IMG/VR virus record: IMGVR_UViG_3300031740_000001
Length of the DNA: 64,000 bases
DNA from: a virus
Taxonomy: Duplodnaviria > Heunggongvirae > Uroviricota > Caudoviricetes
Strand: one strand, 5' to 3'
Below the pieces are notes generated by a model. That model was not told the DNA's origin and made no database searches. It saw nothing but the letters and a program-made list of their open reading frames with translations. Of this stretch, positions 1,720 through 55,874 are shown piece by piece (within the stretch, counting starts at the first letter, position 1; each line of letters begins with the position of its first letter). Made by a program: the position numbers and the translations under genes.

Positions 1720-1836
1720 GAGAAACTTGGTGCAGCCATCCAGGTGGCAATACCGTGCATTACTTCGGCAACGGTATGGAGCTACCGTGCGAATGTGGTG
1801 AGCGTCCGTATTTTCAGAGCCTGTACATCGATCTAG

Positions 1837-2430: not shown

Positions 2431-2915
2431 ACTGTCTTCATTGCCTAAAAGAAATCCAAATAGTGCGAAGTAGAGACAGAAAAAAACGTTTCTGCACTCG
2501 ATGGTGTTGGACGCAATACCGGGGTGATCAGATCGAGACTAAAACAACACGTTTTTCGGGTGATACGTATAACGTATACGCGTTATCCCTTGATGGAGCT
2601 ACTTACCGATATGTAGGCGCAACAAATTACATAAACATTGATCAAAGACGTGTTCAATGGTTCGCGCAAAGATTCAGGTTCACGACACCTGTTTCTCGAT
2701 GGGTAACAGAGTTCTGCGCTCAAAACTCTGATTTGAAGATTGAGTTTCTTGGTTCGGATAATGACAAAGATCGTTTGCTCGAACGCCGATGGATTGAACA
2801 ACTTCAAGCATTAGGATTTGATCTCTTAAACCGGCAAACAGGTGGCGATCGTGGTTTCACCCAACCATCTTGGAGCAAAGGTCTGAAGACTGGACCTCGA
2901 AAGGGAAATAGATGA
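2427..2915 (+). CDS. putative GIY-YIG-like homing endonuclease with an N-terminal Cys-rich zinc-finger segment
   Basis: It sits in a locally AT-rich stretch (2440-2900) inside a GC-rich operon. The GTGA start overlaps the upstream stop. The motif YNVYALSLDGATYRYVGATNYIN...R...W resembles the GIY-YIG core. The N-terminal segment CLHCLKE...CTRWCW is Cys-rich. Confidence 0.45.
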   Translation: MNCLHCLKEIQIVRSRDRKKRFCTRWCWTQYRGDQIETKTTRFSGDTYNVYALSLDGATYRYVGATNYINIDQRRVQWFAQRFRFTTPVSRWVTEFCAQNSDLKIEFLGSDNDKDRLLERRWIEQLQALGFDLLNRQTGGDRGFTQPSWSKGLKTGPRKGNR

Positions 2916-3994
2916 AGGTATATGTATTTCCTGCCGATATGACTGGTTGTGGGATGTATCGCTTAATATGGCCATCCGAAGAGCTGATCCGGCGCGGCCA
3001 TGATGTTGTCGTGGTGCCGCCTCAACAGCGTGACAACATGATGCAGGCGACCTTGCGCAACGGCGTCGTGACTAGCGTGAAGATCCCCACTGACGCGGAT
3101 GTCATCGTTCTTCAGCGCGTCACTCACCGGTACCTGGCGCAGGCCATCAAGGTGATTCGGCAGTCTGGCGTAGCCGTTGTCGTGGACATGGACGACGATC
3201 TGACTTGCATCCATCCGTCAAATCCAGCGTTCAACGCGCTGCACCCGGTCAACGGCAACGTTGATCACAACTGGCAGAACACCTTGGCAGCCTGCGATAA
3301 CGCGACTATGGTCACGGTCTCCACGCCTGCGCTGGTCGGTCGTTACGGCAAGAAGACTCCAGCGCACGTTTTGTACAACATGGTTCCCGAACGCATGTTG
3401 GACGTTCCGCACGAAGACTCAGACGTTGTCGGATGGGGTGGAGCGGTCTTCAGCCACCCGACGGACCTCCAAGAGCTAGGACCGTCCATTGCCGGGGTTC
3501 TACGGGACGGTGGGGCGTTTAAAATCGCTGGCCCTATAGATGGGGTGCATCGGGCGCTCGGACTACCTAGCGACGCTCCTGTGGCGACTACGGGCATAAT
3601 TGCGGATATCCGGGCGTGGCCATTAGCGATCAACTCGATTGGTATCGGCGTGGCACCACTGGCGGATTCTCGTTTCAATAATGCCAAGAGCTGGCTGAAG
3701 CTGGCCGAATACGCGGCTGTAGGCGTGCCTTGTGTCGGCTCACCGCGTGAAGAGTACCGGCGTCTGCATCGTCTAGGCGTTGGCCTTATGGCTAAGAATC
3801 CGACCGAATGGGCCAAGCAGTTGCGCAGGTTGCGCGGCTCGGAGAGCTTGCGCGAAGAGCTGTCGTACAAGGGCCGTGCCGTCATGGAAACGTTGACGAT
3901 CGAAGACAATGCTGAGCTGTGGGTCGAGGCCTGGACCGAAGCGCTGATCCGTGATCGCGCTGGCCGTAACCCGCTGGTCCGTAGCGGAATCTAG
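2912..3994 (+). CDS. glycosyltransferase (GT-B / GT1-GT4-like, putative)
   Basis: 360 aa with an ATGA overlap with the upstream gene. The N-terminal segment MKVYVFPADMTGCGMYRLIWPSEEL is typical of GT-B enzymes. It lies in the glycosylation cassette. Confidence 0.5.
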   Translation: MKVYVFPADMTGCGMYRLIWPSEELIRRGHDVVVVPPQQRDNMMQATLRNGVVTSVKIPTDADVIVLQRVTHRYLAQAIKVIRQSGVAVVVDMDDDLTCIHPSNPAFNALHPVNGNVDHNWQNTLAACDNATMVTVSTPALVGRYGKKTPAHVLYNMVPERMLDVPHEDSDVVGWGGAVFSHPTDLQELGPSIAGVLRDGGAFKIAGPIDGVHRALGLPSDAPVATTGIIADIRAWPLAINSIGIGVAPLADSRFNNAKSWLKLAEYAAVGVPCVGSPREEYRRLHRLGVGLMAKNPTEWAKQLRRLRGSESLREELSYKGRAVMETLTIEDNAELWVEAWTEALIRDRAGRNPLVRSGI

Positions 3995-16552: not shown

Positions 16553-16965
16553 GTTCTTTCTCCTTTTGGTTCTTGGGTTGTTCCTTATTTGATAATCAGG
16601 AGGTTAGCATATTCTGGCACGCCTGCAAGTCAGCCACAACCACAGCAGGTGCATATTGCCATTACCAGGGCAAACACGGCGTACAAGAAACGATCAAGGT
16701 TGCCTTGCTGTCCTCTTCTCATTCCTTCTCCTTCCGGAATTGATGTTGGGCCGCAGGGTAAATCCGGAAACCCCTGCGGCCCGCACCAGCCTGTACGTCG
16801 GCTGTCCACCGTCCAGATCTTTCTGTCCTAGGAAACAGGGCAACTGGAGTCCCAGTCAGAATCCCATCTGACCAGCGGGGATGTTACTTTTGTTTTAACC
16901 ATCTCCCCCTGTTGAGAGTTTGATGGGCTGGAAGTCGTCATCGCACATCCAATATTTCGACCTCG

Positions 16966-17051
16966 GGCGAACGGGAGGACTCGAACCTCCAACCAACGGT
17001 GACTTCTCGCGCGATCCCTCACCGCTGCTCTGCCAATTGAGCTACCTTCAC
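16966..17051 (-). ncRNA. tRNA-like element (Leu-type acceptor and D-arm, canonical T-arm, aberrant 16-nt anticodon-region loop); possible pseudo-tRNA
   Basis: The minus-strand RNA has a 6/7-bp acceptor, then a D-arm GCTC-AATTGGCA-GAGC. A CGGTGA/TCACCG stem encloses 16 nt. The T-arm is GGAGG-TTCGAGT-CCTCC. No 7-nt anticodon loop can be formed. Confidence 0.35.
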
Positions 17052-17338: not shown

Positions 17339-17659
17339 TTGAAGATGAGTTCTTGTTATTTTACGTCGTTGAAACCCATCCCCACAAACTTCGACGTTTG
17401 CCCAGAGTTATACAGATGTGGGCGTCTCTGCCTGGATTGATACTCGCCAAATGATGCCACATACCAGGTAAGGCGGCGTGAAGATGAGAGGGCTCGCACC
17501 TCCATTACCACCCTTGCGAGTGGCGTCCTGCATGTGGCTTTGGGATTGGTTACCTACCGGCACTTTTAAACGACATCTTCTCCGCCACGGGAGCCTATAC
17601 GGCTGAGCTGCCGAAGCCCTCTAGCACGATCGTGTTCCGTGACTTGCACTGCAGTACCG

Positions 17660-17733
17660 TAGCGGAGGCTGGATTTGAACCAGCGACCTACAGGTTATGA
17701 GCCTGGCGGGCTACCGAGCTGCCCTACTCCGCT
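17660..17733 (-). tRNA. tRNA-Met (anticodon CAU; elongator type, could be Ile2 if lysidinylated)
   Basis: It forms a canonical cloverleaf: AGCGGAG-TA-GGGC-AGCTCGGTA-GCCC-G-CCAGG-CTCATAA-CCTGT-AGGTC-GCTGG-TTCAAAT-CCAGC-CTCCGCT-A. It is 74 nt with no encoded CCA. Confidence 0.75.
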
Positions 17734-31543: not shown

Positions 31544-32485
31544 ATGGGAATTCTGATCGGGCTCATCATCTTGACGTTGATCGGGCTTGTTGCGGCAGTG
31601 TTCGTAGCTGCACCTACTCCGGCGAAACCGGAACGCAGGGACGGCTATGGCCGAACGTCTGCAGCAGTTCCCGCTAGCCGGGTGTACTGGGAGCGTGGCG
31701 TTGCTGTTCTGCTGGCAATCGCTGCTTTGTGGTTCGTGTGCTCGATTTCGATCGTGGACGCTCGGGCGCAGAAGGTGCAAACCAGCTTTGGCAAGGTGAC
31801 GGGCGTCAACGGTTCAGGGTTCAACCTGGTCGCTCCGTGGTCCAGCGGTACTCAGTTCTCGACCAGCAAGCAGTGGATCGAGTTCGAGGCCGATGGCAAG
31901 GACGACAAAGAGCCACAGATCAAGGTACGGCTTGCAGGCCAGGCGACGGCTGTTGTCTGGGGCACTGTGTACTACGAGCAGCCTGCAAGTGAGATCGATG
32001 ATCTGTACCTGGACTGGAAGGAAGAGGCTCGTATCCGCGAGAAGTTCGTTTTCCCGCTGGTCCAGCAGGCGCTGAATGAGGCCTTCGGAGTTTATGACCC
32101 GCTGGCTGCCGCAAAGCAGGACGCTGAGGTGCTTTCCACCTATAGCAAGACGGCAACCGAGGCTCTGAGGTCGAAGATCGGCGGCAAGCTTGCTGACGTA
32201 CAGATTCAGCTTCGTGACATCGACTATGACGATGATACGGAGAGGCGTCTGCGGGACATTCAGACCGCTATCGCAGACTTCCGTGTAGCCACACAGAAGG
32301 CCGCGACAGCAGAGCAGATCGCCTTGGCAAATACCCGGATCGCCGCGTCATTGAGCAACGATCCGGTGACTGCGTTCTACCAGTGTTCGCAGATGTGGGC
32401 GGACGTCATCAAGGAGACCAAGCCCGGCACGCTGAACCTAGCGAGCATCTGCAGTCAGTACATCCCGCTAACTGCAACACGGTAA
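31544..32485 (+). CDS. SPFH/band-7 (prohibitin/stomatin-like) domain membrane protein
   Basis: An N-terminal TM helix is followed by QKVQTSFGKVTG...VWGTVYY... and a coiled-coil, AEQIALANTRIAAS, typical of the SPFH family. Confidence 0.6.
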   Translation: MGILIGLIILTLIGLVAAVFVAAPTPAKPERRDGYGRTSAAVPASRVYWERGVAVLLAIAALWFVCSISIVDARAQKVQTSFGKVTGVNGSGFNLVAPWSSGTQFSTSKQWIEFEADGKDDKEPQIKVRLAGQATAVVWGTVYYEQPASEIDDLYLDWKEEARIREKFVFPLVQQALNEAFGVYDPLAAAKQDAEVLSTYSKTATEALRSKIGGKLADVQIQLRDIDYDDDTERRLRDIQTAIADFRVATQKAATAEQIALANTRIAASLSNDPVTAFYQCSQMWADVIKETKPGTLNLASICSQYIPLTATR

Positions 32486-33566: not shown

Positions 33567-33639
33567 GCGGGCGTAGCTCAGCTGGCAGAGCTTCCGACTT
33601 TTACTCGGAATGTCGCAGGTTCGATCCCTGCCGCCCGTA
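33567..33639 (+). tRNA. tRNA-Lys (anticodon UUU)
   Basis: GCGGGCG-TA-GCTC-AGCTGGCA-GAGC-T-TCCGA-CTTTTAC-TCGGA-ATGTC-GCAGG-TTCGATC-CCTGC-CGCCCGT-A. It is 73 nt with no encoded CCA. Confidence 0.8.
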
Positions 33640-33675
33640 CGTAAGGACATCATCGAAACAGAAAAGGAGAGCACC

Positions 33676-42440: not shown

Positions 42441-42605
42441 ATGAACGAGGTTTCTCGCACCGCAAACCAAGGCGAACTGGAGCGTTGTGCAGATGGCTGT
42501 GGCCAGGTTGTGGCTGCTACCCTGATGATGCCCGTGATGGTGGACGGCAAGGAGATCGTGACCTGCCTGTTCTGCCACGTTGAGGCCAAGCGGATCTTCA
42601 TGTGA
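42441..42605 (+). CDS. zinc-ribbon small protein (54 aa)
   Basis: CADGCGQ...CLFCH motif. A GTGTTACGATAAAGGAAGAAGAAAACGACACGAGGAGGAAGCC-ATG cassette-like leader precedes it. Confidence 0.45.
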   Translation: MNEVSRTANQGELERCADGCGQVVAATLMMPVMVDGKEIVTCLFCHVEAKRIFM

Positions 42606-43084
42606 TCGAGGAATGGGAGAACGAAGCAATGGAAAATCTCTCAATCGCGGATTACGCCACGGGGACTCTGTTCCCCGTGCGTAACGTCTGTGGAGATTCA
42701 CGCTGCATGGTTGACCACGGAAGGTCGATTCTGCAGCTGCGCTGGTACTACAGCGAGCCGACTACGGTGTTTGCGCTGGCTGGCGAGGATGCGGAGACAA
42801 GCACGCCGCAGGATTTCATCGTAGGCAGAGAACTACTGCTCACAGCCCTTCGATCAGGTACTGGAACTGGATTTCCGGTCGTGGGCGAAGGCAACGTGAT
42901 GTGTCAGGTGATCAAGAACAATCGGAGCGCAATTGCGATCGGGTTCAACGAGGGTTTCATCATCCTTGCCGACCGAAACGCTCTCACGGAGTGGTTGATG
43001 GGCACTTATGTCCACGTTCCGCCTGACAAAGAAGAGGCCATCCTCGACCTGGACCGCGTGATCGCTGAACTGCTCTACAGGTAA
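42602..43084 (+). CDS. hypothetical protein
   Basis: 160 aa with ATGA coupling. Confidence 0.5.
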   Translation: MIEEWENEAMENLSIADYATGTLFPVRNVCGDSRCMVDHGRSILQLRWYYSEPTTVFALAGEDAETSTPQDFIVGRELLLTALRSGTGTGFPVVGEGNVMCQVIKNNRSAIAIGFNEGFIILADRNALTEWLMGTYVHVPPDKEEAILDLDRVIAELLYR

Positions 43085-43570: not shown

Positions 43571-45184
43571 GTGGATCGTGCAGTAGCGCGTCGTCGCCCT
43601 AAGACTTTGCTTCAGGGCGAAATCATGCTGCCCGATCACGTGAAGGAAGACTTGCTTACCGCATCCGCGCAGATGCTGGGCGGCTCAGCGCGCGAGCAGT
43701 ATGCGGTCCAGTACAGGACCTGGCAGGACGAGCTTTGGGCTTATTCGCGCGCCGTAGGCGAGTATAGCAACGTCATGAACTGGTACGCCTCGGGAATCAG
43801 CCGGATGCACCTGGTTGCGGCGCTGGTGCGCCCTGGCCAACGTGAGCCTGAGATCATCGAAGACGAAGAGGATCCGGCCGTTCAGCTGGTCCACCGACTG
43901 GTAACGCACGCGAAGAACGGTGAAACGCAGTACCTCTACAAATGGGGTCGCCAGCTCGGGATTCCGGGCGTTGGTTTCTTTCTTGGTTATGAAGATGAGC
44001 GTAGCGGCGCAGAGATTTTCGACGTCAAAAGCGCAAAACAGATCCGCCGCTCTACTATTCCGTTCAAAGACGCCGGTGGCGTGATGCGCGACCAGTACGG
44101 CGAGGTGCTGACCGGATACGACCTGCGCACAGGCCCGCTGGAGTGGATGAAACTTCCCTTCAACCAGCTGGTAAGCCGGATTTTCCAACCAGACGACGAA
44201 TTGGATTATGAAGTTACGAGTTGGTCTCGCGGTGCGCTCACCACGCTACGTGAAATCGACTTGATGAACCGGCACATCGTGGCGACGTTGCTATCTCGTC
44301 TCGTATTTAACGGCATACTCTTCATCCCTCAAGAGGTCACGTTTCCGGTTAATCCCCAGTTCAAGGACGCGCCGGACCCATTCATCGCCGAGCTGATTGC
44401 CATCGCTTCGCGCGGCATCAAGGACCCCGGCAGTCCTGCTAGCGCTGTCCCGGTCCCCCTGCGTGTCCCCGCTGAATTCATTGACAAGTTCGTTCACTTG
44501 ATCCTCGCTAACGGTGTGGACCCCAAGCTGGTTGAAGCCCGCCAAGCAGCCATCACCAACCTATCGCAGATGCTCCCGAGCCCGCCAGAAGCGCTCAAGG
44601 GCAAGAGCGACATGAACCACTGGAACGCGTGGAAGGACTCCGAAGACAACGTCAAGATGTACTTCGGGCCGACCATGGAGATCCTGTGCGGCGGCCACAA
44701 CGACGCGTATCTGTGGCCGATGCTCAAGGCCGCTGGCGAGAAGATCGACGTTGATGGTGCACGCCGGGTGGTGTGGTACGACCCGAGTGACCTCGTTGTT
44801 CAGCCAGATAACTCCGCGAATGCCGAATTGCTGCACGCTGCCGGTGGAATCGATGATGACACTTGGCGCGAAGCGATGGGCTTTAGCATGGAAAACAAGC
44901 CTACTAAAAAGGAGAAGCGGGAGATCATTCTCACCCGCTTGGCGGTTCAGGGTCTGCCCACTCCTGATTCCTTCTACCTGCTGTATCCCGAAGACAAGCC
45001 AGATCCGATGGACACGGCTGTCGAAGGCGCAGAAGCGCAGGCAGAAGCGAACAAGATCCTCATAAACTCGATGCCGGAAGGTGCTGTCGCTGGCCCGTCC
45101 GCAACTTCCGGCATCGCTAAATCTGGTATGCCAGCTCAACCCGCGCGCGGGCCAGAGCGTAAGCCTATTGCCGCGGGGGGTTAA
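43571..45184 (+). CDS. portal protein (putative)
   Basis: 537 aa. It lies downstream of the large terminase and upstream of the MuF-like gene. The acidic composition and size fit a portal. No motif-level proof. Confidence 0.55.
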   Translation: MDRAVARRRPKTLLQGEIMLPDHVKEDLLTASAQMLGGSAREQYAVQYRTWQDELWAYSRAVGEYSNVMNWYASGISRMHLVAALVRPGQREPEIIEDEEDPAVQLVHRLVTHAKNGETQYLYKWGRQLGIPGVGFFLGYEDERSGAEIFDVKSAKQIRRSTIPFKDAGGVMRDQYGEVLTGYDLRTGPLEWMKLPFNQLVSRIFQPDDELDYEVTSWSRGALTTLREIDLMNRHIVATLLSRLVFNGILFIPQEVTFPVNPQFKDAPDPFIAELIAIASRGIKDPGSPASAVPVPLRVPAEFIDKFVHLILANGVDPKLVEARQAAITNLSQMLPSPPEALKGKSDMNHWNAWKDSEDNVKMYFGPTMEILCGGHNDAYLWPMLKAAGEKIDVDGARRVVWYDPSDLVVQPDNSANAELLHAAGGIDDDTWREAMGFSMENKPTKKEKREIILTRLAVQGLPTPDSFYLLYPEDKPDPMDTAVEGAEAQAEANKILINSMPEGAVAGPSATSGIAKSGMPAQPARGPERKPIAAGG

Positions 45185-45186
45185 CG

Positions 45187-46992
45187 ATGCGCACTGCCCG
45201 AACGCTGCGTCCGTGGAGTCTGGAAGCTTTGATTCAGCGGGAGAAGACCTTTGACGGTCTGATCGAAAAAGCCGTCAAGATGACGTTGCGTCCGCTGGCG
45301 ATGAACGTTGACGGGCTGCTGACTGCTGCTGTGGAAGCGGAGATGAGCCTGTCCTCTTCGCTAGCCGCAACGATGATTGGCCCTACGGTCAGCATGGATA
45401 GCGCTGGTGCATTGTCTGTGACCTGGGATCGATTCGTCGATGGTGAACTGCTGCCATTTCTCGCGGATACGTTTATGCATGGTGTGGTACAGGCTCATGT
45501 GGGTCTTCCAGCTGACACACCGATTGTCGCTGACTTCATTGCCCAGGATTACCTACTGACTGCGGCTAATAACCTGAAGAACATTGGTGATCTCGTCTGG
45601 ATGGCGATTCAGGCCGAACTTCAGGAAGGCGTCAATGCCGGAGAGGACATGCGGCAGCTCGCTGGAAGGGTCCGTGCGGCCTCTCAGGTGACCGCTGGGC
45701 GTGCAATGACGATTGCCCGTACCGAAGTGCACCGTGCGGCAGAAGCGGGCTCTCTGACGCAAATGAGGCTGTCCGGCTTTACCAACTTCGAATGCCAGAA
45801 GCGCTGGCTTGCGACCGAAGACGAGCGCACCAGACTTTGGCACATCCAGGCTGATGGCCAGACGGTGGGCCTGAACGAGGTCTTCGACGTAGGCGGGGAA
45901 GGGTTGCAGTTTCCTGGCGATCCGCACGGACGTGCGGATAACGTCATCAACTGCCGATGCACTATGGAGTATCTTTTCCCGGATGATGACGAGGACGACG
46001 CTCTGACCAGCTCTGGAGCGCCTAGCCAGATTACCTATGCGTTTTGGACCGAAGAGGACGAGCAGGCGCACCCGCGCGATCGTGCGGGTCGCTTCCGGCG
46101 CAAGGACGAGCACGTTGGCAAGGTGCTCAAGGACATCGAAGAGAAGGTGTCTGTTGCGTCCGAGCCTGAGATTTCGCTTCGGGACATCTTGCCGCTGGTC
46201 AACAAGGACACGATCAAACCCCCAAAGATTCCCGATGACATTGTCGATCAGCTGCATAGTGTATTCACCGGTACTTTTGGTGGATTTCGGGCAGAGGTGT
46301 CGAACGTCGAATGGGGCAAGGGCAATCATCGGATGATGGTGTCTGGCAACATTCTCAATGCTAAGGGCCAATCAGTCGGTAGTTTCGAGCGAGTTTTTAA
46401 GATCAACTATCAAGGTGTTTTCATGGTTGATCACACTGGTTTGTACATGGATCGAGACGTACAGGGCCAGGGGTTTGCTAAGGCGTTCAACAAGAATGCT
46501 TTCAAGAACTACAAGAAGATGGGCATCGAACGGGTACAGCTGCAGGCTGACATCGACGTAGGCGGCTACGCGTGGGCTCGCGAAGGGTATGACTGGGCAC
46601 CCGACGATGCTCCATCGCTTGCAGAAACTCTTTCTAGAATTGATGATGCCCGCGCGCCACAAATGACGGAACCTCCGCCAAGGACCCAAAAACAAATTGA
46701 TGATGTTTACTTCCCGATGTCACATCATCTTTATCGGATACCGGAAGAGCGTCGAGAAGAACAGGCCGCACTAGTTCGTAAGCTCTGGCTTGATGTTGGT
46801 GGCACAGTCGACATGGATACACCAGACGACGAAGTTCCTGACATCGTGGAAATGTGGCCGACCCCGTATGAGCTGAGTCAGCTCGGCCGCTGGGAAGGCG
46901 CTGGCAAAGATGACTGGTGGATCGGCAAGGCCATCATGATGGGCTCGAACTGGATCGGGGTGAGGTATCTTGACGATCTCGTTGACGCGTAG
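45187..46992 (+). CDS. MuF-like (SPP1 gp7 family) minor capsid protein with a ~340-aa C-terminal extension of unknown function
   Basis: Phage_Mu_F signatures are present: ...AMTIARTEVHRAAEAG... and the hallmark VINCRCTMEY (N-C-R-C). They end near residue 260. About 340 residues follow. Confidence 0.6.
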   Translation: MRTARTLRPWSLEALIQREKTFDGLIEKAVKMTLRPLAMNVDGLLTAAVEAEMSLSSSLAATMIGPTVSMDSAGALSVTWDRFVDGELLPFLADTFMHGVVQAHVGLPADTPIVADFIAQDYLLTAANNLKNIGDLVWMAIQAELQEGVNAGEDMRQLAGRVRAASQVTAGRAMTIARTEVHRAAEAGSLTQMRLSGFTNFECQKRWLATEDERTRLWHIQADGQTVGLNEVFDVGGEGLQFPGDPHGRADNVINCRCTMEYLFPDDDEDDALTSSGAPSQITYAFWTEEDEQAHPRDRAGRFRRKDEHVGKVLKDIEEKVSVASEPEISLRDILPLVNKDTIKPPKIPDDIVDQLHSVFTGTFGGFRAEVSNVEWGKGNHRMMVSGNILNAKGQSVGSFERVFKINYQGVFMVDHTGLYMDRDVQGQGFAKAFNKNAFKNYKKMGIERVQLQADIDVGGYAWAREGYDWAPDDAPSLAETLSRIDDARAPQMTEPPPRTQKQIDDVYFPMSHHLYRIPEERREEQAALVRKLWLDVGGTVDMDTPDDEVPDIVEMWPTPYELSQLGRWEGAGKDDWWIGKAIMMGSNWIGVRYLDDLVDA

Positions 46993-49900
46993 GCAGCGTT
47001 TGGCGGCTGTCGCCAAGGCTCACGACGCATGGGTTGAGCAGAATTTGTCTGCTGTAGCAGGTGAATTCGATCCTGCCGCGCACCCGAAGGACGGTTCGGA
47101 CTACAACCAGCACAATTTGGACGTTGACGCGACGGGTGGGATGGAAGACGAACTTGCGCAGCTGCTGGCGGGCGTATTTGACGACCCACTGACTGCCGCT
47201 GGGGATCCCGATTGGGATCCGTCCGAGCATCCGCGCGGCCCAGACGGCAAGTTCATTGAGAGCGTCGGCGCTGCTGACGCGGCAATAAAAGAGCTGGAGC
47301 AAGCTCAAGCAGTTGCTTCGCTGGCCAAGAGTGTTGCTTATCTTAAGGGTGAAAACTACAAGGCTCTTGAAATCCAAGCAGACTTGTTGAACATCCAGAA
47401 GGATATTGATACTTACGAGAAGGGGAAAAAGGCCCTCCTCAAAAAGGGGAAGACTGGCCCTAGCCCAGCTGGGGCTACTACCAAGGTCACGCCGAAAAAC
47501 CTTCAGGTGGGTCAGTACGTCAATAGTCAGAGCAGAGATTATCTCAAGGAGTCGCCCAAACAGATCAAATCGATTAGCAAAAAGGGCGATCATCACTATC
47601 TTCTTGATTTTGAAGATGGCTCCAACCTTTATGTGACGAATAACGAAAAGGTTGTTCTGCACTCGCAGCCTGCTGCGAAGGAACCTCTTACAGCGGTTAA
47701 AGCAGACGATCCGGATGTCAAAAATAAGGTCCTTATCGGTCTCCCAGATGGCCGTGGCGCGTATGTCGAGCGCGATGATCCTGCTGCGCCGAAGGTGCGC
47801 GACATCGAGACGGACGAAATTCTTTTCACCGGAAAGAATGACGCTGATCTTTATCAGCAAATGGCAGATCACTTTGGTGTTGAGCTGAAGTATACCGAAG
47901 ATCTCACCAGTAAGATGAAGATCTTTACGCCCAAGAAAAAGGGTGCAGCTAAGCCGATTACCGCTTGGACCAAGACGATCTTCAGTGGAAAATACGGAGA
48001 TGGTGAGGTAGTTGCTGTCAAGGATGATGGCAGCGCGCGGCTGACCTGGGACGAAGGCAGCAAAAAATTCCAGTGGGAAAAGAAGACTCCTGGCGGCTGG
48101 AAGCTCGCCGGGCTGCTCACCAAAAAGGACGCTTACGCGAAGTTCAAAGACGAGAAGACCAGCTGGCAGTATCCTGTGCCTGGCGCGGCAGTCACGGAGG
48201 ATGCACCACCTTCACCTTTGGAAAACTTGCAGTCGCATAGCCTTATCGATAGTGCAATAGCTAAAGGAGATTTCTCCCAGCTTAAGCAGATAGGTGGAAA
48301 CGCTGGCACGACACCAGGCGGCTTCTTTGAGGCACCAGACGGCTCACGCTGGTACGTGAAAGGACAGAAGACACAAGAACATGCTAATAATGAGGCTCTC
48401 GCTTCAGCTCTATACCGCGCAGCTGGCATCGATGTACCCGAAGTAATTCGGGGTAGTGGTACGCCAGGACTTCCAGGCACGGCGCATACGGCTACACGAA
48501 TAGTCGAAGGTGCGAATCAAAATCTGCCAGAAGCATTAAATGATCAAGATTATGTCGATAAGATACGAGAAGGATTCGCTCTTGATGCATGGCTTGCCAA
48601 CTGGGATGTCGTTGGTGAAGGCGATGAAAATCCTTGGGGCAATATTATTGAAGGATCAGACGGAAAGCCGCATCGAATTGATGTTGGCGGAGCATTACTT
48701 TTCCGTGGGCTAGGAACGTATAAAGGCTCAGCTTTCGGTAAAGAAGTTACTGAATTCGAGCGTATGCGTGATACCAGCAAGCCTTCACGCCATGTCAAAA
48801 TTTTCTCGGGCATGAGTCAAGAGCAGATTGACGCATCTGTTGCACGAGTTAAAGCGATTTCTCCTGATCAAATCCGGGAGCTTACATCAAAATATGGTAT
48901 GGATCCGGAACTCGCAGATCTTCTTATTGATCGTCGCGAAAACCTTATTATGAAGGTACCTGCTCCTGATCCCGTCAAAATTCCTGCGCCTACACCAGTT
49001 ATTTCTCCTACCTCTAGCGCAAAGAAGACTGTCTGGACCAAGGGTAAGTTCAACACGACACTTGCGTACAAGAGCAATTACCAACATCGTGAAATTGTTG
49101 GTATGACGGAATCTGCTGGAGAGACGAAACTTATCCTGTGGGAAAGCGGAAAGTTTCGTTCATACCGCCATGTCTTCGGCAGCGGATGGCAGTACGAAGG
49201 CACTTGGACGAGCAAGAAAGCTGCTCTTGAGGCGCTTAAAGATGCGCCACTTTATCGGCCCCCAGCGGGCACGATGGCGGACACGAACAAGGACTTCATT
49301 CATGCGGATCTCTTGAATCATGGCGGTCCGACCATTACGGCGACGGATAGCACTGATCTTTTTCAAGAGCTATACGACGCTGTTCCGCCCATAAGCACTG
49401 AAACTACCATAGTAGACGGTATCGGCATTATTAAGTCACTTGATGGTGACAAGGCAATTGCCTACAACAACGGCGGCGACAACCTAGGTGGCATTCACCA
49501 GAACTCAAAGGGTGAGTGGGTTGTTACCCCAAAGAATTACCTACATCCGTTTATGTCAACTAGCAAAACTTACGCATCGAAAGAAGCAGCGCTCAAGGCA
49601 CTTGTACAGGCAGATAACGCCTACATGGGCTCTATCGGAGCGCGTTCTGACGTTCCTGCCGCGCCTGCCGCGCCTGACATTGAAGAAATCCCGCTGACCA
49701 AGAAAATGCCGAAACTGACTGCTGCTCAAATCGAGAAGCAGAACGGCGCTATTCCGAAGAGCCTAAAACAGGCCCAGCGGACGGATTTCTTGAAAAACTT
49801 CAAGGAAAACAGTTCGGTCGGCTTTGTGCACTCTGGTGAAGACGATGCGCAAAAGGTCTTCACAGCAGTGGTGTACGCGGTAAAGAAGCACAACGCTACC

Positions 49901-50704
49901 GAGTCGCCAAAGCTGAACTACCTACAGGGCCTTAATCTTCTGGACAGCGTCTATGGGACAGGGCAAAAAGCTAGGGTCGTCAGCTGGCTTCAAACGAGTG
50001 AAGGTAAAGCACTCGCGCCTGTGCTCACTAGTGGGCTTGACAGCGGGCATGGGTTGGTCATTCCTGCCGACGCACACGTTGGTGTGCCTTCTCCATACTC
50101 CATCGGCAAGCCTAAAAAGGTAGCTCAAAATGCTTTCCAGAAAATGTCACTTGCAGACATGCTGGAAATGCACGAGAAGATGTACGCGAAAAAGCCCATG
50201 ACCTCCGGCCAACGGTCAAGAATTAGCCAGTACAAGGACGGTTCGAACGAATTTAACCAACCACTTCGCGGACACGCGTACTCACCTCTGGATGAGTACA
50301 GTCTTCCTAAAATTCAAGAGCTTCAGGAAGCTATGCGACCCGTGACACGTTCATTCGTCGTATTTCGGGGAACGGATGGTTTAGGTTCTGCCATTAATAA
50401 AGATACGATCAAAACTTTGGATGATTTGAAAAAATTCGAAGGATCAGTAATTGGTGATCCTGCGTTTCTTTCAACATCATTCGATCCAAATTCAGCCTTT
50501 ACAGGCAAAAAGTTCAAGTTGTTCATTAGTATTCCAGAGGGAACACCAGGAACTTTTGCATATGCAGCTGACAGCAGTTTCCACAACGAGAAAGAGTTCA
50601 CGTTAGCGGCTGGACTGCATTACCGCATCGATCGAGTAGAAGAAACACCTTATTCTGGGTTCAATGTCTACATGACAGTAGTACCGGAGGTGAAGAAGAA
50701 ATGA
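46970..50704 (+). CDS. 1244-aa virion-module protein with a C-terminal ADP-ribosyltransferase toxin-like domain (R / S-T-S / E-x-E)
   Basis: The last ~200 aa carry VVFRGTD (catalytic Arg), AFLSTSFD (STS motif) and FHNEKEFTLAAG (ExE in the ARTT loop), with spacing typical of C3/iota/Alt-type ARTs. A central domain has a kinase-like DAWLANWDVVG...IDVGGAL segment. The start overlaps the MuF gene by 23 nt. Confidence 0.6.
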   Translation: MTISLTRRQRLAAVAKAHDAWVEQNLSAVAGEFDPAAHPKDGSDYNQHNLDVDATGGMEDELAQLLAGVFDDPLTAAGDPDWDPSEHPRGPDGKFIESVGAADAAIKELEQAQAVASLAKSVAYLKGENYKALEIQADLLNIQKDIDTYEKGKKALLKKGKTGPSPAGATTKVTPKNLQVGQYVNSQSRDYLKESPKQIKSISKKGDHHYLLDFEDGSNLYVTNNEKVVLHSQPAAKEPLTAVKADDPDVKNKVLIGLPDGRGAYVERDDPAAPKVRDIETDEILFTGKNDADLYQQMADHFGVELKYTEDLTSKMKIFTPKKKGAAKPITAWTKTIFSGKYGDGEVVAVKDDGSARLTWDEGSKKFQWEKKTPGGWKLAGLLTKKDAYAKFKDEKTSWQYPVPGAAVTEDAPPSPLENLQSHSLIDSAIAKGDFSQLKQIGGNAGTTPGGFFEAPDGSRWYVKGQKTQEHANNEALASALYRAAGIDVPEVIRGSGTPGLPGTAHTATRIVEGANQNLPEALNDQDYVDKIREGFALDAWLANWDVVGEGDENPWGNIIEGSDGKPHRIDVGGALLFRGLGTYKGSAFGKEVTEFERMRDTSKPSRHVKIFSGMSQEQIDASVARVKAISPDQIRELTSKYGMDPELADLLIDRRENLIMKVPAPDPVKIPAPTPVISPTSSAKKTVWTKGKFNTTLAYKSNYQHREIVGMTESAGETKLILWESGKFRSYRHVFGSGWQYEGTWTSKKAALEALKDAPLYRPPAGTMADTNKDFIHADLLNHGGPTITATDSTDLFQELYDAVPPISTETTIVDGIGIIKSLDGDKAIAYNNGGDNLGGIHQNSKGEWVVTPKNYLHPFMSTSKTYASKEAALKALVQADNAYMGSIGARSDVPAAPAAPDIEEIPLTKKMPKLTAAQIEKQNGAIPKSLKQAQRTDFLKNFKENSSVGFVHSGEDDAQKVFTAVVYAVKKHNATESPKLNYLQGLNLLDSVYGTGQKARVVSWLQTSEGKALAPVLTSGLDSGHGLVIPADAHVGVPSPYSIGKPKKVAQNAFQKMSLADMLEMHEKMYAKKPMTSGQRSRISQYKDGSNEFNQPLRGHAYSPLDEYSLPKIQELQEAMRPVTRSFVVFRGTDGLGSAINKDTIKTLDDLKKFEGSVIGDPAFLSTSFDPNSAFTGKKFKLFISIPEGTPGTFAYAADSSFHNEKEFTLAAGLHYRIDRVEETPYSGFNVYMTVVPEVKKK

Positions 50705-52950
50705 GTGGATTCAGTAGTGATCCTAGCTTCTACGTCGTCTCCGGCCATGGCGCTGACCAGGGGTTTACCGAAGATGAAGCGTACGCGCTGCTCGCTGGTC
50801 TTGATGACACCAGCTCCACAGCCGTCATGCCGATGGTTGCTGCCGTGGATTCGGACGGGGAAGAGCACACGGGTGCGATGGTCGCGCTGGTGCCTACGGA
50901 TGCGGATATCGAGCGGCTGCTAGTCGAGGATGGGGAACCAGCTGATCAATTGCACCTCACGCTTATGTTTCTCGGTGAAGCGGCGGACATTTCCGAGAAC
51001 AGCCGTGCACAGATCATCGCTGCTGTGGAGCGTTATGCCGATGCTCAGCTGAGCGCGAATGGCTTCAGCGTCAACGTTTTCAACCCGATGGCGAGCAACT
51101 CGTGCATCGTGATGGGCGTTGGCAACGACGACGGAAGCCTGCAAGAGCTGCAGATGAACGTCGCGTCATCGCTGCGCGGGCTCGCTGGTCTGATGATCCC
51201 AGACCAGCACACTCCTTGGGTTCCGCATGTCACGTTGGCGTACACGGATGAGTTTGGCAAGGTAGAAGAGCTGGGTACGCGTACTGGACCCATCACTTTC
51301 GACAAGATTCGCGTTGCCTTCGGCGGCGAAGTACACGACATCCCGCTAGGAGGGACGATGACGGCATCTATTGAGGAGTTCGCAGAACGCGACGTTAACG
51401 CCCCCGGCGGAGGGCATGATCTACGTAATTACTGGACTAAAGGCGAGGGCGCAGCCAAGATCGGATGGGGTACGGACGGATCTTTCGCGCGCTGCGTGGC
51501 GCAGCTCGGGAAACACGTTCGTGACCCGCAAGGCCTGTGCGCGGAATATCATCATGCTGCGACAGGCGAATGGCCTGCGGAAAAAGGCGTGAAGAGCGGC
51601 GGCACCATGACGGAGTTCACGACTGAGGGTGTCATCCTCACAGCAGCTCAAGCAGCGAAGCAGGCGGAAGATGAGCCGTGGGAGGGTGTGCTCACCGTCG
51701 AGGGCGAAGAGTCCGGAGACGGGCGTCTCTTCGGCCATGGCTCCTTGGACTGGGCCGAACTGCCAATGCCCCTTATGTACCAGCCTGCGAGTGTGGGCGG
51801 CCATGACGCAAGCGTTCTCGCGGGTGCGATAACTTTTGCCGCGCGCAAGGGCAGCCAGATCTTTGGCCGTGGTCACGTCTTCGGCAACATGCTGGACAGC
51901 GAGCACGGTGACGGAATTCGCAACATGATGTCAACAGGCGGCGTTTCCGTTGATGTGGACAAGGTCAAGGATGTGGACGTGGAGATGGTCTTCGCCGATG
52001 GTGAAGCTGGGCTCATGTCCAAGCCTGAACTGACCGTGTTCCACCGTGGCCGGATCCGTGGCGCGACGCTGGTTGCCTTCCCGGCATTCGTGGAAGCCAA
52101 ACTTGCCTTCACCAATGAGGCGATGCTGACTGCTGCAGCTGGCGAAAGTTGTGACTGTTCAATGGGCGGGGATTCGTACGTTCTGAACGCCGCTAGCCAC
52201 ACGATCACCATTCCGGATGTTCCCCCGGCGGAGTGGTTTCAAGAGCCGACCGACGTGCAGGCAAAGGGCGCGCTGACCATCACGGACGAAGGCCGCGTGT
52301 TCGGCTGGCTGGCACCAGCGGGCGTCACCCATCGTTCGGTCCGTAAGACCGTACCTATGGGCGCGAACGTGGATTACAGCCGCTTCATGAAGAGCGAAAC
52401 CATTGTCGCTGGCGGTGGGCGCGTGGTGTCTGGAGTCATCACGGGCAATTGCGGTCACGCGGACACGGAGAACTACGGCACGCTAGCGAATCGGAAAAAG
52501 CATTATGATGATTCGTGTTCGGTCTTCGCGAATATTGCAGTTGGCCAGCGCCCTGGAAAAGGCGTCTGGGTCGCTGGTGCGCTCCGCCATGGCGTCACAG
52601 CAGAGCAGGTTGCGACGGCAATGGGATGCACGCTCTCAGGTGACTGGCAGCCACACCCGGACCGTCCTGGGGTGCAGGAGTTCATCGCGGCGTTGCTTGT
52701 ACCTGTGCCGGGATTTGCCATGGCTCGTACGCAGGCCTCGGTAACTACAGCATCGGCATCTGTCCTTTATCAAGATGGAGTTCTGACCGCTGCGGCGATT
52801 CCGGTCCAGTTCGGAGAGGCAATTCCGCGTAGCGAAATCGAAATTGCACAAGACATCATCACGGAGTACAAGGATCTGCTGCTGGCAAGCCTTGACCTCG
52901 ATCCTCAGAGCCGCAAAGATGCGGTTATGGCAGAACTAGAAATGGAGTAG
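50701..52950 (+). CDS. fusion protein: N-terminal 2H phosphoesterase (LigT/2',5'-RNA-ligase-like) domain plus a putative prohead protease/scaffold-like C-terminal region
   Basis: Two H-x-T-x motifs are present, LHLTLMFLGE and VPHVTLAYTD, about 100 aa apart as in LigT/CPDase. The downstream region has HD...VSVD segments that weakly resemble the S78 prohead protease. It lies between the ART gene and the major capsid gene with an ATGA overlap. Confidence 0.5.
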   Translation: MSGFSSDPSFYVVSGHGADQGFTEDEAYALLAGLDDTSSTAVMPMVAAVDSDGEEHTGAMVALVPTDADIERLLVEDGEPADQLHLTLMFLGEAADISENSRAQIIAAVERYADAQLSANGFSVNVFNPMASNSCIVMGVGNDDGSLQELQMNVASSLRGLAGLMIPDQHTPWVPHVTLAYTDEFGKVEELGTRTGPITFDKIRVAFGGEVHDIPLGGTMTASIEEFAERDVNAPGGGHDLRNYWTKGEGAAKIGWGTDGSFARCVAQLGKHVRDPQGLCAEYHHAATGEWPAEKGVKSGGTMTEFTTEGVILTAAQAAKQAEDEPWEGVLTVEGEESGDGRLFGHGSLDWAELPMPLMYQPASVGGHDASVLAGAITFAARKGSQIFGRGHVFGNMLDSEHGDGIRNMMSTGGVSVDVDKVKDVDVEMVFADGEAGLMSKPELTVFHRGRIRGATLVAFPAFVEAKLAFTNEAMLTAAAGESCDCSMGGDSYVLNAASHTITIPDVPPAEWFQEPTDVQAKGALTITDEGRVFGWLAPAGVTHRSVRKTVPMGANVDYSRFMKSETIVAGGGRVVSGVITGNCGHADTENYGTLANRKKHYDDSCSVFANIAVGQRPGKGVWVAGALRHGVTAEQVATAMGCTLSGDWQPHPDRPGVQEFIAALLVPVPGFAMARTQASVTTASASVLYQDGVLTAAAIPVQFGEAIPRSEIEIAQDIITEYKDLLLASLDLDPQSRKDAVMAELEME

Positions 52951-52953
52951 GGC

Positions 52954-53121
52954 ATGTGTGGATGTGGGCGGAGTCGTAATCGCGAAGTGGTCACCACGGC
53001 GCAGGCGCAGGGCGACGCGGAAGCGCGGGCACTCATGAATCAGCTAGAGCAGCAGACTGTTTCTGCAGCTGAGGCCATGCTGAAGTCGGCAACGAACGCA
53101 GTAGGCAACGCGCGTTCATAG
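52954..53121 (+). CDS. small protein (55 aa)
   Basis: GAAATGGAGTAGGGC-ATG Shine-Dalgarno. Translation: MCGCGRSRNREVVTTAQAQGDAEARALMNQLEQQTVSAAEAMLKSATNAVGNARS. It is followed by a terminator. Confidence 0.4.
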   Translation: MCGCGRSRNREVVTTAQAQGDAEARALMNQLEQQTVSAAEAMLKSATNAVGNARS

Positions 53122-53231: not shown

Positions 53232-54923
53232 GTGTCTAAGGACGAAAAACTGAGTCTCCCAGAGGACATCACAACCCTCAGTGGAGCAGACCTTGATGCT
53301 TTCGTAGCGCAGGCTAGCGAGCGTGTGAAGCAGCTGCACAGCAGCGGCAGCACCGAATTCGCGCAGCAGACCGCCGAGGCAGACGAGATGGCCAGCTTGG
53401 CTGGCGACGTGCGCAAGGTGCGGCTTGAGAAGGCTCGCCGTAACGACCAATTCGCGAAGAACGACAGCGCGAAGGCCGATGCACAGGCGCTTCTGGATGA
53501 GCTGGCGGCTGAAGAGGCTGCAGCGGCCGAGGCCGTACAGGCTGAAGCACCGGCTGTGGAGACCGTTACCGCGTCAGCTCGGCCGCACGGTGGCGCGATC
53601 ACCAATCCCGTGCAGCGGGGCACTTTCAAGAACCCGAGTCTTGCCGATGCGCAGCAGACGGTAAAGCAGCAGCCTGCAGAGCGTCGTGAGAGCGTGCTTA
53701 CCGCTAGTGCTGACATTCCGGGCTTCGGCGCTGGCGTCAAGATGGACGGCATGGAGGACCTCACCCGCGCGTTGACCGCTCGGGCGAAAAGCCTCCCGAT
53801 CACGCACCGTGGCGACGACGCTCCGCGTTATCCGATTGCTTCGCTCAATCGCGAGTTCAAGTACTCGCTAGACATGCAGTCCACCCCGGAGCAGATCAAC
53901 GAGGTTCTCACGGCGGCGATGAACCCGGAGATCCTGATCGCGGCCGGTGGCTGGTGTTCGCCGAGTGAGATCTCTTACGACTTTTTCAACCTCGTCTGTG
54001 ATGACGGTGCGCTCGATCTCCCCACGGTTGGTATCAACCGGGGTGGTATCCGCTGGCCGATTTCGCCGAGCTTCGCAGATGTCACCAGCTCGACTGCACT
54101 ATGGTCCTGGACCGAGACTCAGGACATCGCGGCCGTCACCGGTACCGCTCAGTCAGGCACCAAGACCTGCGGCCGTGTGCCGTGTGTGACCTTCGACGAA
54201 GAGCGTCTGCACTGCGATGGTATCTGCCTCACGGTCGGTAACCTGACCGAGGACAGCTACCCGGAGTTGATCTCCAACTTCACGAAGCTGCTCTTCGCAG
54301 CCCACTTCCACAAGATGAACCGTGCACGGATCAACGAGCTGCGTACCTTGTCGGCTTCGTTCACCGTGACCAACGGCGACGCTGGTTCTGGTGTTGTGGC
54401 ACCGGTTCTCGGCGCGCTGGAGCTTCAGGCGATCGACTACCGCTCGCGTTATGCGATGTGCGAAAACGCTCTCCTTGAGGTTATTGCGCCCCGCTGGCTG
54501 CGTGGCGCAATGCGCTCTGACCTGCGCAAGCGTATGGGTTCCGGCACTGACATGCTCAGCGCCTCGGACGCCTACCTCATGCAGCTCTTCGATGCGATCA
54601 ACATCCGCATTCAGTGGGTTTCGGACTACCAGGAGCGGACTACCGGCTTCCCGGGTATGCCGAGCACGCTGATGACCGCGTGGCCGACCACGGTTGAGTT
54701 CATGATGATGGCTCCCGGCACTGCGGTGCTTGGCCAGGGTCTTCGCCTGGACTTGGGTATCATCCGCGACTCTGTCCTCAACGCCACGAACGACCACACG
54801 GCGGAGTGGATGGAAGAGTGCTGGTTGATCTTCAACCCGGGCCACGAGATCCGGCGTCTGACTGTCAACATCTGCCCGGACGGCACGACCGGCGCGGCCG
54901 ACCTGACCGCGTGCGGCGTCTAA
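53232..54923 (+). CDS. major capsid protein (HK97-fold) with an N-terminal scaffolding-like delta domain
   Basis: 563 aa. The N-terminal ~150 aa form an A/E/Q-rich coiled coil. The remainder has a capsid-like composition. It sits after the protease-like gene. Confidence 0.65.
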   Translation: MSKDEKLSLPEDITTLSGADLDAFVAQASERVKQLHSSGSTEFAQQTAEADEMASLAGDVRKVRLEKARRNDQFAKNDSAKADAQALLDELAAEEAAAAEAVQAEAPAVETVTASARPHGGAITNPVQRGTFKNPSLADAQQTVKQQPAERRESVLTASADIPGFGAGVKMDGMEDLTRALTARAKSLPITHRGDDAPRYPIASLNREFKYSLDMQSTPEQINEVLTAAMNPEILIAAGGWCSPSEISYDFFNLVCDDGALDLPTVGINRGGIRWPISPSFADVTSSTALWSWTETQDIAAVTGTAQSGTKTCGRVPCVTFDEERLHCDGICLTVGNLTEDSYPELISNFTKLLFAAHFHKMNRARINELRTLSASFTVTNGDAGSGVVAPVLGALELQAIDYRSRYAMCENALLEVIAPRWLRGAMRSDLRKRMGSGTDMLSASDAYLMQLFDAINIRIQWVSDYQERTTGFPGMPSTLMTAWPTTVEFMMMAPGTAVLGQGLRLDLGIIRDSVLNATNDHTAEWMEECWLIFNPGHEIRRLTVNICPDGTTGAADLTACGV

Positions 54924-54965: not shown

Positions 54966-55874
54966 GTGTCAATGGTTAGTCCACGTGACTGGGCGTCACC
55001 ACCGACGTTCACCCCTTTCCCGTACCGTCTCAAGACTGTCGCGACGGAAGTTGAGCAGTTCACGGGACATCAGAAGCTCGGAATCATGTACCAGTCCGAT
55101 GCTTGTGTGCGTCCGCTGGAGACGAGCACGCAATGCCTGACAGGTGTTGGTGCAGTGAAGACTCCGCTGTCCGGTGCGAACTGGCGCGGCGCGAATCCGT
55201 TCGTCGTCTACACCTGGCTTGACTGCGATCTGGTCGGCGTTGGTGAGGAGGAGCTTCGTTCTCGTACGCTTCGCGCACATCAGAACAACGTGCAGTGGCA
55301 GGTGGAGAACATCTTCTGGACGGGTGGGCTCTACAACACCTATCCACACCTTGCCTACACCGGCGCTGATGTGGTGGAGATTTCAGGTGGTTCTGAGGTT
55401 CTGCTTCAGACCTCTGCAATCACTCCTGTCACCGGCGCGTACGACATCGTTGAAGGCCTTGGGCTGCTGGAGTACTACATGGGCAACTGCTACGGCGGGC
55501 GTCCAGTAATCCACATGGCGCAGATGGGCCTAGCTCATCTGGCGGCAAACCATCTTCTCGTGGAAAAGAACGGCAAGCTCTACACACCAGGCGGCAGCTT
55601 GGTAGTAGCTGCGCCGGGCTATGGGCGCACCGGTCCTAATGGGATTGCTCCCGCAAGCGGTGGGTTCTGGATGTATGGAACTGGCGCTATCAAAATGTGG
55701 CAGAGCGATGTCCAGCTTATGGCGCGGGACACCAAAGAAATGCTTTTGCGTACGAACAATGACACCGTCCTTATCGCGGAGCAATGGTTCGCGGTGGGTT
55801 GGGATTGTTGCCACTACGCAGTTCAAATCTCATCTGGTGGCGTGATCACCGGTACCCCGATTTCTGCGACGTAG
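54966..55874 (+). CDS. virion structural protein (head-tail connector or adaptor candidate)
   Basis: 302 aa, immediately downstream of the capsid gene. Confidence 0.4.
   Translation: MSMVSPRDWASPPTFTPFPYRLKTVATEVEQFTGHQKLGIMYQSDACVRPLETSTQCLTGVGAVKTPLSGANWRGANPFVVYTWLDCDLVGVGEEELRSRTLRAHQNNVQWQVENIFWTGGLYNTYPHLAYTGADVVEISGGSEVLLQTSAITPVTGAYDIVEGLGLLEYYMGNCYGGRPVIHMAQMGLAHLAANHLLVEKNGKLYTPGGSLVVAAPGYGRTGPNGIAPASGGFWMYGTGAIKMWQSDVQLMARDTKEMLLRTNNDTVLIAEQWFAVGWDCCHYAVQISSGGVITGTPISAT

Follow-up and report, generated by a model that had tools for sequence, protein, structure and literature searches.

The head gene module of IMG/VR virus record IMGVR_UViG_3300031740_000001, a member of the Caudoviricetes, contains an open reading frame (ORF; 50701-52950) in which a 2H phosphoesterase domain is joined in frame to a prohead protease, and this locus raises the question of why such an enzyme should be made as part of a capsid maturation protein. 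The window analyzed here is a 64,000-nucleotide stretch of the 79.6-kb contig. We interpret the 749-amino acid (aa) product as a head-maturation polyprotein that would be cut at motifs in its linkers, with an active LigT-like 2H enzyme kept in the head and entering the next host with the DNA, an interpretation in which our confidence is about evenly balanced. The architecture itself is not new, as it is abundant in actinobacterial phages and a role for it has already been proposed in print. What is new here is the evidence for fusion and fission of the 2H module, a conserved leader, a candidate cleavage motif, and a link to existing virion proteomics.

Two H-x-T motifs, H85-L-T87-L (in HLTLMFLGE) and H176-V-T178-L (in PHVTLAYTD), were located in the predicted protein with a spacing of 91 residues. 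Profile matches placed residues 80-183 in the 2H superfamily: Pfam PF13563 (2_5_RNA_ligase2) was matched at E=3.6e-7 (30.8 bits against a gathering cut-off of 27), phrog_2659 ('RNA ligase') at E=3e-27, and NCBIfam TIGR02258 (RNA 2',3'-cyclic phosphodiesterase) at E=1e-10, with a score of 41.8 bits that lies below the equivalog cut-off of 65.7. Pfam searches gave no match of the query to the Acb1 profile PF23474 and no sequence-level match to the Usb1 families. Sequence searches of the Protein Data Bank (PDB) with the protein and with a 70-sequence profile returned weak 2H matches and none for the protease or the C-terminal domain, so a comparison of folds was needed. The 2H fold consists of two similar alpha/beta lobes, each carrying one H-x-T motif, with a central cleft between them, and this fold was seen in the AlphaFold2 model of the domain, in which the predicted local distance difference test score (pLDDT) was approximately 95 over residues 58-218. 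Foldseek matched the model to LigT structures at E~3e-7, LigT/ThpR being the closest family by structure. The best matches by sequence and structure together were E. coli ThpR (5ldm), its D. radiodurans counterpart (5h7f), and Pyrococcus PH0099 (1vdx), which have the H-x-T motifs and the fold in common with the query, but are only 18-23% identical to it; the query also differs in falling below the TIGR02258 cut-off, in its acidic surface, in its head-module setting, and in having no RNA-repair partners.

The catalytic residues H85, T87, H176, and T178 were invariant in all 58 of the 2H-bearing homologues, which ranged from 45 to 88% identity, and were nearly invariant in more distant members of the family, including stand-alone 2H proteins. 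Invariant H-x-T motifs are the signature of a working active site, and the catalytic residues are under strict selection. The domain is a bona fide 2H phosphoesterase and is predicted to be catalytically competent.

The fusion partner of the 2H domain is a prohead protease. At E<=0.1 no Pfam protease family (such as Peptidase_S78) matched the 749-aa protein, and the protease profile matches were all to PHROG families annotated as head maturation protease. The corresponding part of the protein has an assemblin-like fold with a conserved His and Ser (H368 and S416), and the gene has the portal/MuF genes on one side and the gene for the major capsid protein on the other. The analysis found no scaffold function in the 749-aa protein; the scaffold-like element is instead the N-terminal part of the 563-aa capsid protein. 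The protein is thus a capsid maturation protease with extra modules and not a scaffold. A preliminary description of this locus, made from the sequence, had noted the ORF with its two H-x-T motifs and assigned it to the 2H superfamily, both of which were borne out by the profile searches and the fold match; it had also named the partner as a 'protease/scaffold' protein, of which the in-frame fusion to a prohead protease stands and the scaffold does not. At least 12 independent metagenomic contigs carry the same fused frame, with identities of 72-93%, and it is therefore not an assembly artefact.

Based on the model and the family alignment, the order of parts in the protein is leader, 2H, small helical domain, protease, beta-rich domain, and terminal helices (Table 1), with disordered linkers in the model at residues 37-52, 219-238, 295-320, 474-503, and 673-704. 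The leader was kept both in the fused proteins and in stand-alone 2H proteins (P0121-P0138 in alignment A2), and it is a candidate capsid-targeting or docking peptide. The small domain contains helices at residues 241-288 (pLDDT 83-91) with near-invariant Y244, W245, W256, C265, and C280, and it is flanked by 'GGTMT' repeats at residues 217 and 300. This domain (phrog_6439) was strongly conserved and always precedes the protease, and relatives carry after it a variable insert, which often starts with EFHGxHNQxDH and sometimes holds DUF6582. The beta-rich C-terminal domain matched phrog_29860 ('virion structural protein') at E=9e-17 and was modelled with a pLDDT of 75-92. Its invariant residues C584, H586, H601, and C606 may form a metal site, and a PDB fold comparison of this domain gave no convincing match. 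The C-terminal tail is a candidate capsid-docking segment of the protease, a role drawn by analogy with the HK97 protease.

A comparison with close relatives indicated how the 2H domain and the protease come together and apart. Approximately half of the 120 closest protease homologues lacked a fused 2H and started at the small domain. In two contigs of this kind, L005 and L007, a stand-alone 2H gene of 216-218 aa was located directly upstream of the protease gene, between it and a gene encoding MuF and ADP-ribosyltransferase, and the stand-alone proteins keep a leader of approximately 45 aa and end exactly where the linker of the query begins. MuF and ADP-ribosyltransferase form one gene in L005 (4097-9004, 1635 aa) and L007 (4853-9001, 1382 aa), and two genes in the window (45187-50704). 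The junction between these two parts in L007, IVTAAGDPDW, matches the N-terminal PLTAAGDPDW of the ADP-ribosyltransferase protein of the window. Gene order and alignment thus mark the 2H domain as an autonomous unit in a fixed slot. A separate proposal, that the N-terminal position of the close protease homologues holds swappable cargo, was rejected for this clade, as the relatives without a fused 2H begin at the small domain and have the stand-alone 2H upstream. Between small domain and protease, the variable insert was made up of DUF6582 or low-complexity sequence and held no enzymes.

An exhaustive profile search with the 2H domain gave 658 cluster representatives at E<=1e-30, and among the top 143 of these only 17 were shorter than 300 aa. 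The head-protein fusion partners of this clade were HK97-like proteases, Mu-like protease I, ClpP-type proteases, MuF, and portal, while the effector fusion partners were ADP-ribosyltransferase (the commonest), zeta toxin, Nudix, and topoisomerase IB. That one clade is fused to several unrelated head-assembly proteins argues that a location inside the procapsid is what selection favours. When the 2H domain alone was used for tblastn, 413 phage records were matched, all but one of them with actinobacterial hosts, and many of the matches were in the head module at approximately 10-14 kb, labelled 'RNA ligase', 'capsid maturation protease', or 'capsid maturation protease and MuF-like fusion protein'. 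Cultured phages with matching gene order included Gordonia phage Kwekel (gp17, 948 aa), Streptomyces phage Abt2graduatex2 (gp11, 1250 aa, a MuF-2H-protease fusion), and Arthrobacter phage Tank (gp18, 833 aa). These phages, together with Gordonia phage GMA2 (orf10-12), have in common the order portal, (MuF), 2H, protease, and capsid protein, with 2H domains homologous at 25-45% identity and a protease and C-terminal domain that are also homologous, but the phage of the window differs from them in splitting MuF, ADP-ribosyltransferase, and 2H-protease into three genes.

Every linker of the 749-aa protein contains a copy of a short motif, PhiPhiTA(A/S). The copies are PMVAAV (residue 44) at the end of the leader, where the motif was seen in 41 homologues, TMTAS (219) and ILTAA (312) on either side of the small domain, MLTAA (475) and VLNAAS (495) in the spacer region, and VTTAS (681) and VLTAA (694) ahead of the C-terminal tail, a position at which it was present in 59 of 70 homologues. 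For counting, the strict form was defined as [VILM][VILMT]TA[AS] and the expectation was taken from shuffled sequences. The strict motif occurred nine times in a set of five head proteins, with its copies in portal, MuF, 2H-protease, and capsid, versus 0.25 expected, a count reached in 0 of 1000 shuffles, and twice in the 10,239 aa of the 34 other window proteins, while the relaxed motif occurred 14 times versus 1.8 expected (Fisher p=6e-4), all of these statistics being post hoc. In the 70 homologues the motif clustered at the same six linker positions, and equivalent sites carry it in L005, in L007, and in the Kwekel and Abt2graduatex2 capsid proteins. Copies are also located near the N-termini of the portal protein (residue 28), MuF (residue 44), and the ADP-ribosyltransferase protein (PLTAAG). 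No copy was found inside the 2H fold. From this distribution we infer that PhiPhiTA(A/S) is a candidate recognition site of the prohead protease. Cleavage at the motif, if real, would free residues ~48-221 as a protein of 18.5 kDa, with a predicted isoelectric point (pI) of 4.2.

In the capsid protein, the sequence ESVLxASADIPGF was near-invariant in 48 homologues and sits at the boundary between the folded body and the disordered stretch that follows the helical N-domain, a site at which a delta-like domain would be expected to be cut away. The AlphaFold2 model of this protein has helices at residues 18-102 (pLDDT ~88), a disordered stretch at 104-153, and a strand at 155-158, and in the model the N-domain (53232-53700, residues 1-155) resembles a built-in scaffold of the delta type. 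Downstream of the motif, many family members have (W/F)x3-6(H/Q)PRx3-4G(K/R)(F/W). The composite PhiPhi(T/V)A(A/G)...(W/F)x3-6(H/Q)PRx3-4G(K/R/Q)(F/W) was also observed after the 2H domain in many distant family members, and in the MuF and ADP-ribosyltransferase proteins of the window a PhiPhiTA(A/G)-like site precedes HPRxxxG(K/R)F. In MuF this element is HPRDRAGRF (residues 295-303, 46069-46095), and in the ADP-ribosyltransferase protein it is at residues 87-95 (47228-47254, counted from 46970), giving an N-terminal composite of PLTAAG...HPRGPDGKF. The HPR composite may serve head polyproteins as a connector or for docking. It is possible, although we put this forward only tentatively, that the motif and the short N-terminal leaders form a general loading-and-release grammar in actinophage head polyproteins, by which an enzyme placed between two connectors would be carried into the procapsid, cut free, and delivered, with the 2H domain acting as a capsid-borne counter to nucleotide-signalling immunity (type III CRISPR and the cyclic-oligonucleotide-based antiphage signalling system, CBASS) in actinobacteria. 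Cargoes under such a grammar may include the 2H phosphoesterase, ADP-ribosyltransferase, zeta-toxin kinase, Nudix, and topoisomerase IB.

In the literature on the cleavage motif or on virion proteomics of the fused proteins, only a table for GMA2 was useful. The orf10 product of this phage (883 aa, 'putative structural protein') ends in a 2H domain at residues 718-874, with HLTL at 756 and PHITA at 835, which is 30% identical to that of the query (E=3e-15) and is preceded by GVTAAAL. Purified GMA2 virions yielded 18 orf10 peptides, one of which, SEVGDYDAYTPHITAVTGQQAR, maps to residues 825-846, within the 2H domain and across motif II (Dyson et al. 2015, PMC4524720 Table S5). This peptide shows that a homologous 2H domain is associated with particles, although not strictly with mature virions. 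No GMA2 peptides were found ahead of the motif copies in orf9 (portal) or orf10. The GMA2 data were not used as evidence for the cleavage motif, since removal of the capsid N-domain is not cleanly supported by them. The capsid association put forward in the preliminary description thus gains indirect support from this peptide and from the head-protein fusions of the 2H clade, and the MuF and ADP-ribosyltransferase that it had grouped in one head module proved to be a conserved arrangement, the two being fused to each other in relatives with the 2H as a separate gene in the same slot.

Under the interpretation favoured here, the polyprotein would be built into the procapsid along with the capsid protein, and the protease would cut at the PhiPhiTA(A/S) sites in every disordered linker, freeing an intact LigT/ThpR-like 2H enzyme of ~18.5 kDa inside the head. 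The enzyme would stay in the virion and enter the next host with the DNA, where it would hydrolyse a 2',3'-cyclic or 2'-5' phosphodiester at the very start of infection. Its substrate would most likely be a nucleotide messenger of host immunity, with a cleaved RNA end as the less likely candidate.

Several observations weigh against this scheme. For this protein and its close relatives, cleavage, persistence of the enzyme in mature heads, and its ejection are predictions, and the definition of the motif was drawn up once the data had been seen. The 2H domain of GMA2 is represented by a single peptide, and the N-terminal helical region of the capsid protein (orf16, residues 15-69) also yielded peptides in that sample, so that the GMA2 capsid N-region may not be removed or the preparation may have held immature or unprocessed particles. 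The predicted 2H fragment is strongly acidic and may be awkward beside packed DNA, and the existence of stand-alone 2H genes shows that the domain need not be covalently linked to the protease. LigT/ThpR, which process RNA ends, are closer to the domain than Acb1 is. In a preprint on 75 phage 2H phosphodiesterases, 13 of which have extra domains 'including proteases', substrate range was found to follow structural group, and for two of the groups none of 18 immune or regulatory nucleotides served as a substrate (Doherty et al. 2025).

The nearness of the domain to ThpR also favours a role in RNA-end healing, in which an enzyme similar to LigT/ThpR or to the cyclic phosphodiesterase of tRNA ligases would open the 2',3'-cyclic ends left by anticodon nucleases or toxin RNases, either after packaging or in the cytoplasm. 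The phage encodes tRNA-Lys(UUU), tRNA-Met, and tRNA-Pro, which hint at pressure from tRNA-targeting defences, and tRNA-Lys(UUU) is the classic target of anticodon nucleases. However, no RNA ligase, polynucleotide kinase, RtcB, or Tpt1 was found by Pfam and PHROG searches in the ~40 ORFs of the window, with ~15 kb of the contig lying outside it. The score below the TIGR02258 equivalog cut-off and a pI that is unusual for a protein binding an RNA polymer also speak against RNA-end healing, as does the published statement that head-linked 2H versions never accompany RNA ligases (Iyer et al. 2017, PMC5512222). We consider this role unlikely.

It is also conceivable that the 2H is a late cytoplasmic enzyme that is co-expressed with the head genes and, if fused, is cleaved off and lost or degraded during maturation, leaving it absent from virions. 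The stand-alone 2H genes of close relatives would suit such an enzyme, as would the acidic fragment, the possible presence of immature particles in the GMA2 sample, and the fact that fragments of the HK97 protease leave the capsid. However, co-expression alone explains poorly why the clade has been fused repeatedly and independently with MuF, with portal, and with prohead proteases of at least three unrelated kinds. The conserved leader, the motif copies that flank the fold and are never inside it, and the 2H peptide from GMA2 particles argue in the same direction; a folded domain of 18.5 kDa would probably be too big for capsid pores, and late expression would be ill-timed against defences in the same cell. 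This alternative therefore appears to have a small probability.

A third alternative is that the 2H is an offensive RNase or host-takeover effector that would trim or cleave RNA in the manner of Usb1 after injection, alongside the ADP-ribosyltransferase. Members of the clade are often in one polypeptide with an ADP-ribosyltransferase or a zeta toxin, but no RNA-binding features were identified in the query, its surface is acidic, and it has no sequence-level match to Usb1. We know of no experimental phage precedent for a Usb1-like offensive 2H RNase, and we regard this option, which was raised in print by Iyer et al. (2017, PMC5512222), as quite improbable. Finally, the absence of the 2H from about half of the close protease homologues means that the protease works without it, but a non-catalytic 2H fold serving as spacer, chaperone, or protease prodomain is very hard to reconcile with H-x-T motifs that never vary in the 58 fused homologues and hardly vary in the stand-alone proteins, or with the stand-alone copy found next door where the fused 2H is absent (L005 and L007).

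The delivery of a head-packaged 2H enzyme that we favour, and that the preliminary description had also proposed, is essentially a published hypothesis. In the sections that deal with these domains, fusions of 2H to MuF or portal are described, and the injected 2H proteins are proposed to be RNases or to degrade 2'-5' or cyclic nucleotide signals (Iyer et al. 2017, PMC5512222); the corresponding part of a later paper (Iyer et al. 2022, PMC9503650) repeats the proposal for head-fused 2H. The systems described in those sections are similar to the one reported here in their late head gene context, fusion to a virion protein, and lack of an RNA ligase partner. They differ in that the partners named there are MuF and portal, with a capsid-processing serine peptidase mentioned in those sections only for Nudix fusions, whereas here the partner is the prohead protease; the candidate cleavage grammar and the conserved leader are added here to what those sections describe.

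Among other known systems, the 2H enzymes Acb1 (7t26/7t27) and PDE-9 of Burkholderia phage BCSR5 (9q2y) are small stand-alone proteins, whereas the query is fused and has no match to PF23474, and the lid elements that shape the activity of Acb1 and PDE-9 were not identified in it. In phage T4, Alt and the internal proteins IPI-III carry leaders (the capsid-targeting sequence) that are removed by the prohead protease gp21. A summary of Alt is given by Iyer et al. (2017, PMC5512222). The resemblance to T4 lies in head-packaged effectors, a leader cut by a protease of assemblin fold, and an ADP-ribosyltransferase in the payload; the query protein is likewise encoded in the head module, and its 2H domain is physically linked to a head protein by fusion to the protease. 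T4 differs in its cleavage motif (L/I-x-E) and in cargo that is not fused to the protease, and loading and ejection are proven in T4 but only predicted here. The C-terminal 2H domain of rotavirus VP3 (4rpt, 6o3v) belongs to a eukaryotic double-stranded RNA virus and is fused to a capping enzyme, without proteolytic release.

Table 1. Coordinates of the 2H-protease gene, its parts, the neighbouring head genes, and the tRNA genes of the window
Feature	Coordinates	Strand	Description
2H-protease ORF	50701..52950	+	749 aa; ATG overlaps stop codon of upstream ADP-ribosyltransferase gene
N-terminal leader	50701..50841	+	aa 1-47; conserved helix TEDEAYALLAG; ends in relaxed motif copy PMVAAV (44); low pLDDT
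2H phosphoesterase domain	50842..51363	+	aa ~48-221; folded core 55-218; catalytic H85-x-T87, H176-x-T178
Linker and small helical domain	51364..51645	+	aa 222-315; fold 240-292 (51418-51576); phrog_6439 E=3e-24
Prohead serine protease, HK97/assemblin fold	51646..52134	+	aa ~316-478; folded 325-470; invariant H368, S416
Spacer and beta-rich C-domain	52135..52791	+	spacer aa 479-498; C-domain aa ~499-697; folded 510-670 (52231-52710)
C-terminal helical tail	52792..52950	+	aa 698-749; two helices 712-748, pLDDT ~80
Portal protein	43571..45184	+	phrog_776 E=2e-79; motif copy DLLTAS at aa 28
MuF-like minor head protein	45187..46992	+	601 aa, C-terminal extension; PF04233 E=1e-15; motif copies aa 44, 123
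ADP-ribosyltransferase protein	47000..50704	+	1234 aa; PF03496 E=7e-17 at aa 1072-1225; start from public gene call
Major capsid protein	53232..54923	+	563 aa; phrog_777 E=9e-122; motif copies TVTAS (111), VLTAS (155), within or at the end of the disordered junction
tRNA-Lys(UUU)	33567-33640	+	
tRNA-Met(CAU)	17659-17733	-	
tRNA-Pro(AGG)	16965-17051	-	

The head module of the window runs in the order portal, MuF with its extension, ADP-ribosyltransferase protein, 2H-protease, a 55-aa ORF, capsid protein, a 300-aa protein, and major tail protein. The 55-aa ORF (52954-53121), located between the protease and capsid genes, keeps its position in relatives, with counterparts of 51-55 aa in L005 and L007 as well as Tank gp19 and Abt2graduatex2 gp12. 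Related cultured phages label the capsid protein 'major capsid hexamer protein', and the gene that follows it here (54972-55874, phrog_779) hints at a separate pentamer protein. The approximately 1000 residues upstream of the ADP-ribosyltransferase domain were without a family match; a very weak HipA_C kinase-like hint (E=0.084) was observed in the middle of this protein (48335-48445), and beyond it Pfam returned nothing for the rest of the ADP-ribosyltransferase protein, the extension of MuF, the C-terminal domain, the small domain, or the 55-aa ORF.

Elsewhere, the window encodes a family A DNA polymerase, a primase-polymerase/D5 helicase, an SNF2 helicase, a PD-(D/E)XK nuclease, a dCMP deaminase, and glycosyltransferases. 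An SPFH/Band 7 protein is encoded at 31544-32485, and the left end (191-3994) carries an epimerase and three glycosyltransferase-like genes. An SsgA-like protein (42602-43084), matched at E=4e-5, just below the cut-off, is a clue to the host, as the SsgA family is specific to actinomycetes. No nucleotide-level similarity to the window was found among 50,697 phage records, and its sequence is known only from metagenomic contigs (Logan SRR8558721). Its G+C content is approximately 55%, and the related cultured actinophages are higher in G+C than this.

A 2H enzyme arriving together with the DNA, if this does take place, would already be in the cell ahead of all phage gene expression, a timing that would suit the blunting of defences that use cyclic-oligonucleotide or 2'-5' signals, and the Acb1 idea would extend to actinobacterial phages, including groups used against mycobacteria. 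The hundreds of actinophage head-module genes annotated as 'RNA ligase' are most likely 2H modules of head polyproteins and not ligases. Taken together, the fusion and fission of the 2H module, the leader, the motif, and the link to proteomics make the hypothesis directly testable in cultured phages.

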